From the NCBI RefSeq assembly GCF_051903065.1, contig NZ_CP178438.1: a stretch of 64,000 bases of DNA; one strand, 5' to 3'. Origin of the DNA: Escherichia coli (GTDB taxonomy: Bacteria > Pseudomonadota > Gammaproteobacteria > Enterobacterales > Enterobacteriaceae). The notes below the pieces were generated by a model. The model saw only the letters and a list, made by a program, of their open reading frames with translations. It had not been told where the DNA came from and did no database searches. Each line of letters opens with the position of its first letter. Position 1 is the stretch's first letter. Shown here piece by piece: positions 18,263-19,201 of the stretch. Position numbers and translations under genes: made by a program.

Positions 18263-18277
18263 GGTAATGACTCCAAC

Positions 18278-18781
18278 TTATTGATAGTGTTTTATGTTCA
18301 GATAATGCCCGATGACTTTGTCATGCAGCTCCACCGATTTTGAGAACGACAGCGACTTCCGTCCCAGCCGTGCCAGGTGCTGCCTCAGATTCAGGTTATG
18401 CCGCTCAATTCGCTGCGTATATCGCTTGCTGATTACGTGCAGCTTTCCCTTCAGGCGGGATTCATACAGCGGCCAGCCATCCGTCATCCATATCACCACG
18501 TCAAAGGGTGACAGCAGGCTCATAAGACGCCCCAGCGTCGCCATAGTGCGTTCACCGAATACGTGCGCAACAACCGTCTTCCGGAGCCTGTCATACGCGT
18601 AAAACAGCCAGCGCTGGCGCGATTTAGCCCCGACATAGCCCCACTGTTCGTCCATTTCCGCGCAGACGATGACGTCACTGCCCGGCTGTATGCGCGAGGT
18701 TACCGACTGCGGCCTGAGTTTTTTAAGTGACGTAAAATCGTGTTGAGGCCAACGCCCATAATGCGGGCTGTTGCCCGGCAT
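18278..18781 (-). CDS. insB: IS1 InsB' (transposase C-terminal part)
   Basis: 167 aa [30 protein letters not shown]... Confidence 0.9.
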
Positions 18782-18975
18782 CCAACGCCATTCATGGCCA
18801 TATCAATGATTTTCTGGTGCGTACCGGGTTGAGAAGCGGTGTAAGTGAACTGCAGTTGCCATGTTTTACGGCAGTGAGAGCAGAGATAGCGCTGATGTCC
18901 GGCGGTGCTTTTGCCGTTACGCACCACCCCGTCAGTAGCTGAACAGGAGGGACAGCTGATAGAAACAGAAGCCAC
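18700..18975 (-). CDS. insA: IS1 InsA (transposition inhibitor / transposase N-terminal part)
   Basis: 91 aa [40 protein letters not shown]... Confidence 0.9.
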
Positions 18976-19201
18976 TGGAGCACCTCAAAAACACCATCAT
19001 ACACTAAATCAGTAAGTTGGCAGCATCACCGGGGGCATTTTAATAAGTGAGGAAGTGATAGGAAGTGACCAGATAATACATATATGTTCTGTACTCTCTT
19101 GCGCATTTTGATTGTTGACTGAGTAATCAGACAGTTGATGTGCACGATTTCCCCTCGCCCTAGCAGACGTGGGCGGGGGCACCCGGTGTGTGCAATATAC
19201 G

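Follow-up and report, generated by a model that had tools for sequence, protein, structure and literature searches.

How did a complete IS1 element come to lie, with no target-site duplication (TSD), between fragments of two genes in an Escherichia coli chromosome? The question is raised by the 64-kb stretch of DNA analysed here (the window), in which the gene order putA-putP-efeUOB-phoH-pgaDCBA-dgcT-pdeT is followed, beyond the element, by serX-ghrA-ycdXYZ-csg. IS1 elements are about 768 bp long and have imperfect 23-bp terminal inverted repeats (IRs) and two genes, insA and insB', joined by a −1 frameshift at an A6C motif. Their direct target duplication is 9 bp, sometimes 8-11 bp. Our main reading, to which we assign a probability of roughly 0.6, is that the element marks the precise place where 30.1 kb between pdeT and serX have been deleted, and that insertion of IS1 and then one or more adjacent deletions produced this state.

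The element is an IS1A with all element-defining features present (Table 1). It has the length, the 23-bp IRs and the insA/insB' pair with an A6C site that typify the family, and it is labelled 'IS1-like element IS1A family transposase, programmed frameshift' by NCBI/PGAP in identical copies; nucleotide identity to copies annotated as IS1A ranges from 99.7 to 100%. The IS1 IR pattern has two matches in the whole window, one at each end of the element, where none would be expected by chance. The window copy is intact and presumably active.

Table 1. Positions of the features at the IS1A locus, and of the IS-associated alleles in other strains with which it was compared.
Feature	Genome or locus	Position	Strand	Remarks
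pdeT (vmpA), CSS-EAL c-di-GMP phosphodiesterase gene	window	15430..17040	+	retained left part of island
yqeJ/fidL-like gene, frameshifted	window	17142..17632	-	downstream of regulator
Regulator 3' remnant, winged-helix (Trans_reg_C), ToxR/MarT-like membrane regulator	window	17637..18262	-	left of IS1A
IS1A, complete, 768 bp	window	18263..19030	- (transposase genes)	100% identical to IS1A of 23CRST031 and ECNB21-M121
IRR (insB end), GGTAATGACTCCAACTTATTGAT	window	18263..18285	+	0 mismatches to IS1 IR pattern; abuts regulator remnant
insB' ORF, 167 aa as listed	window	18278..18781	-	open, from ORF list
insA ORF, 91 aa	window	18700..18975	-	open, from ORF list
A6C −1 frameshift site, AAAAAAC	window	18718-18724		element position 307
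IRL (insA end), GGTGATGCTGCCAACTTACTGAT	window	19008..19030	-	0 mismatches to IS1 IR pattern; abuts ycdU remnant
ycdU remnant, last 20 bp (5 codons and stop), GGGGGCATTTTAATAAGTGA	window	19031..19050	+	from alignment with Combat11I9 and GF3-3
serX, tRNA-Ser(GGA), intact	window	19243..19330	-	212 bp right of IS1A
Simple IS1 insertion	2017.02.04CC	ycdU 3' end, 35 bp from the window's right junction		9-bp TSD CGATTTTAT
Simple IS1 insertion	MLI105	ycdU		9-bp TSD CACAACCTC
Simple IS1 insertion	XJ34	FHA gene		9-bp TSD CTTCACTTG
Scar 1, IS1A	window type	regulator remnant to ycdU remnant		no TSD
Scar 2, IS1	ECNB21-M121	left junction as in window		no TSD; 114 bp more deleted than in window type
Scar 3, IS1B	Combat11I9, L26, 23CRST011	L004 9516-10283		regulator remnant to truncated lolA-like gene; no TSD (Combat11I9)
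Scar 4, IS3	LR536431	L001 7404-8566		between regulator remnant and serX
Scar 5, IS3	K-12 type	L003 5362-5718, L010 2999-3355		dgcT to truncated malonyltransferase gene
Scar 6, IS1A	a7	L011 4293-5060		truncated pgaC to last 72 bp of ycdU; no TSD

The family trait that the window copy lacks is the TSD. The 9-mers on its two sides, CGACTTCAG and GGGGGCATT, are different, and a search for k-mers of at least 4 bp shared between the 20 bp on each side found none, so there is no offset or 8-bp duplication near its ends either. In these respects the original prediction, which had described a 768-bp IS1 with intact IRs, both insA and insB', and differing flanking 9-mers, holds in full. As a control, IS1 copies in the same neighbourhood of other strains were considered, giving three simple insertions and, with the window, four copies bounded by truncated genes. 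All three simple insertions (2017.02.04CC, MLI105 and XJ34) have a perfect TSD and undeleted flanking DNA, and absence of the TSD accompanies a flanking deletion in each of the other four (4/4, a small sample from the dgcT-serX neighbourhood). The missing TSD is a property of the insertion history and not of the IS1A element, which lacks one in the window because a deletion replaced at least one of its original flanks. Elsewhere, missing TSDs have been ascribed to adjacent deletion or to recombination between IS copies (PMC11708052).

Both flanks of IS1A are partial genes, and the window therefore represents a derived, deleted state. Compared with intact homologues of 270 aa, the regulator on the left retains codons 64-270 together with 2 nt of codon 63, and PGAP flags it as 'incomplete; missing N-terminus'; the loss of its 5' end, predicted from the window, thus amounts to the first 63 of 270 codons. 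The Trans_reg_C DNA-binding domain occupies residues 25-103 of the intact protein (Pfam), so that the remnant has neither promoter nor start codon and has lost that domain's first half. Expression of the remnant was considered and rejected, its 195-aa internal ORF (ATG at 18224) having no Shine-Dalgarno sequence recognisable by eye and half of the DNA-binding domain being absent. The adjoining yqeJ/fidL-like gene has lost 1 bp from a T8 run, which reads T7 in the window (17383-17389), and is frameshifted as a result. It is intact in ECNB21-M121, which is otherwise 99.96% identical, and is marked as frameshifted by PGAP in 23CRST031; the frameshift could be real decay of an orphaned partner gene or a homopolymer sequencing error.

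On the right, the 20 bp that abut IS1A close the ycdU coding sequence in both Combat11I9 and GF3-3. An intergenic stretch of 192 bp separates them from serX, the only structured RNA in 17500-19600 to reach its Rfam gathering score. The ycdU-serX spacer (19031-19242 in the window) varies among strains: GF3-3 and XJ34 have about 103 bp more in it than do the window and Combat11I9, and in these two longer spacers some 80 bp of the window's right flank align twice. An RtT sRNA is annotated in this spacer in some genomes, and in the window's spacer region only the tRNA reaches the Rfam gathering score.

Comparison with IS-free alleles defines what has been lost. In GF3-3, the interval between the two window junctions measures 30,126 bp, running from regulator codon 63 to 20 bp before the end of ycdU, and the reference sequence continues unbroken up to the base adjoining each IS1A end. 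XJ34, whose retained flank is closest to that of the window (98%), has an interval of 30,904 bp, which includes an extra, unrelated IS1 and its TSD. The missing segment holds about 24 genes: the 5' end of the regulator (its first 63 codons), an SDR oxidoreductase gene, a six-gene chaperone-usher fimbrial operon, a two-partner-secretion (TPS) adhesin pair of the filamentous-haemagglutinin (FHA)/ShlB type, and a 15-gene fatty-acid-synthase (FAS)-like/ABC/LolA-like cluster that includes ycdU. The cluster comprises acpS, ketoreductase, FabZ-like, ACP, aminomethyltransferase-family, two ketosynthase, ABC transporter, LolA-like and malonyltransferase genes. The IS-free alleles of GF3-3 and O157:H7 TW14359 are thus not otherwise identical to the window, GF3-3 carrying 30,126 bp more between the junctions. 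With gene remnants on both flanks, this bears out the IS1-mediated deletion or recombination that had been suspected from the window alone, and the loss extends well beyond the regulator 5' end then noticed.

The identity of the lost region can be read from gene order. In O157:H7 TW14359 the order is dgcT, pdeT, the yqeJ-like gene, the winged-helix regulator, SDR, the fimbrial operon, the FHA/ShlB pair and the FAS-like cluster, and GF3-3 and XJ34 extend it on to ycdU and serX. According to a review (PMC4076661), vmpA, the present pdeT, belongs to O-island 47 of O157:H7; this placement and the match to the TW14359 order identify the region as O-island-47-like. The missing genes account for most of this region. 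Our search of the literature on O-island 47 and vmpA found the placement of vmpA and no paper describing the window deletion. The 3' part of the regulator occurs in 409 of 5,426 complete E. coli genomes, and its 5' part together with the SDR gene in 405, which makes the truncated state a rare one.

Inversion or translocation without loss was rejected: both flanks lie in the reference orientation, the missing segment has no match in the 64-kb window, and the strains sharing the junctions are absent among the best 25 of the 405 records that match the nearest allele of the missing DNA.

Junction-spanning searches were run for each junction against the 5,426 complete E. coli genomes. The left junction was found in three and the right junction in two, all of them deleted alleles; 23CRST027 and 23CRST031, which are complete and circular, have both. 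The same genomes yielded no simple IS1 insertion with a TSD at either junction, and hence neither a progenitor with its TSD at a fixed junction nor a chromosome with two direct IS1 copies, each with its own TSD, at the two junctions. The chromosomes of 23CRST027 and 23CRST031 each have about 36-37 IS1 ends, where the median genome has about 10 such places. 23CRST031 further carries an IS4 between mdoH and yceK that is absent from the window (about 35220-35232), the 13-bp overlap of the alignment blocks corresponding to its target duplication; the window is thus from a very close relative of 23CRST031 and not from that assembly.

The remaining carrier of the left junction, ECNB21-M121, is a complete genome from another country whose left flank matches that of the window at 99.96% identity over 8.26 kb. 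Its IS1 and its IRR junction are identical to those of the window, and its IRL junction lies at window position 19145 instead of 19031, so that its deletion is 114 bp longer on the IRL side. Adjacent deletion driven by the transposase classically shows itself in this way, with one IS junction fixed and the extent of loss at the opposite IS end variable; it is a process in which intramolecular replicative transposition removes the DNA between an IS end and a nearby target. It is because ECNB21-M121 has the same IRR junction and an IRL junction 114 bp further on that we favour adjacent deletion. In addition, the ends of the deletion coincide exactly with the IS1A termini and the IS is retained. 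The nested arrangement is represented by this one variant and concerns the 114-bp step: it shows adjacent deletion at this IS1, and we infer that the 30-kb step took the same route. In ECNB21-M121, moreover, the 3' end of serX is occupied by a genomic island that encodes a tyrosine integrase (L002 10233-18344), and a 14-bp copy of the tRNA end remains beside the IS1-proximal DNA; serX is unoccupied in the window.

Under adjacent deletion, IS1 would first have inserted in or next to the region, generating its usual 9-bp duplication. Its transposase would then have driven intramolecular (replicative) transposition from one IS end into nearby DNA, in a single round or in several, the two ends possibly acting one after the other. 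Each round would remove whatever separates that end from its new target, keeping the IS and destroying the duplication. The process would be continuing in the close relative ECNB21-M121, where a further 114 bp are gone at the IRL end. Because the progenitor insertion is unsampled, we infer both the number of steps and which end was fixed in the 30-kb event. [quoted passage not shown]

A less probable alternative, although a realistic one, is RecA-dependent homologous recombination between an IS1 in the regulator gene and a second, directly oriented IS1 in the 3' end of ycdU, which would have excised the 30 kb and left a single hybrid IS1 flanked by one half of each original duplication. Such an outcome, with no TSD, precise ends and one IS, is indistinguishable from that of adjacent deletion, and the lineage carries some 36-37 IS1 copies. 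Same-orientation simple insertions, moreover, are found in ycdU 35 bp away in 2017.02.04CC, in ycdU of MLI105 and in the FHA gene of XJ34, and they make a two-copy recombination realistic. Neither parental insertion was found in the 5,426 complete genomes, however, and the 114-bp shift in ECNB21-M121, a direct product under adjacent deletion, would need yet another IS1 copy. A hybrid IS1 would combine polymorphisms of two different parents; the window element has the common IS1A sequence. The FHA-gene IS1 of XJ34 was rejected as a parental copy; it has the same orientation but is 91.3% identical and has its own TSD.

We consider it very improbable that, with no staggered target cut, IS1 was instead captured in a double-strand break during the resolution of a 30-kb deletion unrelated to it. 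This mechanism was proposed for some IS-centred deletions by Ngan et al. (2024; PMC11708052), who described TSD-less IS copies at deletion centres that are hard to assign to the two classical routes. The proposal concerned IS5 and IS481 and not IS1, however, and 14 of 14 IS-associated deletions in the LTEE resolved as insertion followed by adjacent deletion (PMC11708052); the nested ECNB21-M121 junction likewise fits classical adjacent deletion. That the assembly collapsed two IS1 copies and falsely joined the regulator remnant to ycdU has a negligible probability: assemblies classically go wrong at IS copies, and IS1 is abundant in the lineage, but both junctions recur in the circular genomes 23CRST027 and 23CRST031, which are distinct from the window (23CRST031 having the extra IS4), the left junction recurs in the independent complete genome ECNB21-M121, and all three strains are absent among the best 25 of 405 records matching the nearest allele of the missing segment.

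The adjacent deletion that we favour in the window is one of at least six different IS-bounded scars seen in the dgcT-serX interval of the window and other strains (Table 1). The IS1B of Combat11I9, L26 and 23CRST011 lies 57 bp further into the regulator gene. Strains of the K-12 type retain a 357-bp 3' remnant of the island's ACP S-malonyltransferase gene beside an IS3, immediately upstream of ycdU, which implies that they too have undergone a deletion of the O-island-47-like region, pdeT included, in their case bounded by IS3. Tentatively, E. coli may have a hot spot here, with O-island 47 and ycdU eroded repeatedly and independently by IS-bounded events, though we would not count this as the likelier reading; if true, either loss of the fimbrial, TPS and FAS-like genes would be under selection, or IS1 would hyper-target this partly AT-rich DNA locally. 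In GCA_048064475.1 (L006 11409-15714), the CSS-EAL gene (pdeT) lies directly beside pgaA with no dgcT called; dgcT is present in the other loci examined.

As a consequence of the deletion, the regulator is inactivated and the adhesin and FAS-like genes are lost, while pdeT, dgcT and serX are kept. The pseudogene state of the regulator beside pdeT is accounted for by the IS1-bounded deletion. The lineage has thus lost a fimbrial operon, a TPS adhesin and a FAS-like cluster that are carried by O157:H7 and about 7% of complete E. coli genomes, retains the c-di-GMP genes dgcT and pdeT, and, with about 36 IS1 copies, is still being reshaped by IS1. Both the element and the mechanism are already known, and the event belongs to a long-known class of IS-bounded deletions. 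What is known of IS1 and of deletion mechanisms is left unchanged, and the value of the finding lies mainly in annotation and strain biology.

Compared with IS1A of E. coli K-12, the window copy has the same 768 bp, IRs, insA/insB' and A6C site and differs in having no 9-bp target duplication. Classical IS1 deletions, reportedly the subject of work by Reif and Saedler in 1975 and by Turlan and Chandler in 1995, start from one IS end. The window deletion resembles these and the adjacent deletions of the LTEE (PMC11708052) in that it starts at an IS terminus, retains the IS and has no TSD; as in stepwise IS-adjacent deletions, the loss from this IS extends further in a relative while the opposite junction stays put, whereas, unlike in the cases compared, the progenitor insertion is unsampled. 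Relative to O-island 47 of O157:H7, the window keeps the left end as far as the regulator remnant and, beyond a gap of 30.1 kb, the right end starting with the final 20 bp of ycdU. Identity of the retained sequence is about 94% with the O157 allele and about 98% with that of the XJ34 type. The K-12 type, arranged as dgcT, IS3, truncated ACP S-malonyltransferase gene, ycdU and serX, likewise shows an IS-bounded loss with a truncated island gene adjoining the IS, but there the IS is IS3 and the endpoints are others: the K-12 type has lost pdeT and the regulator and keeps ycdU, whereas the window keeps pdeT and has lost ycdU.
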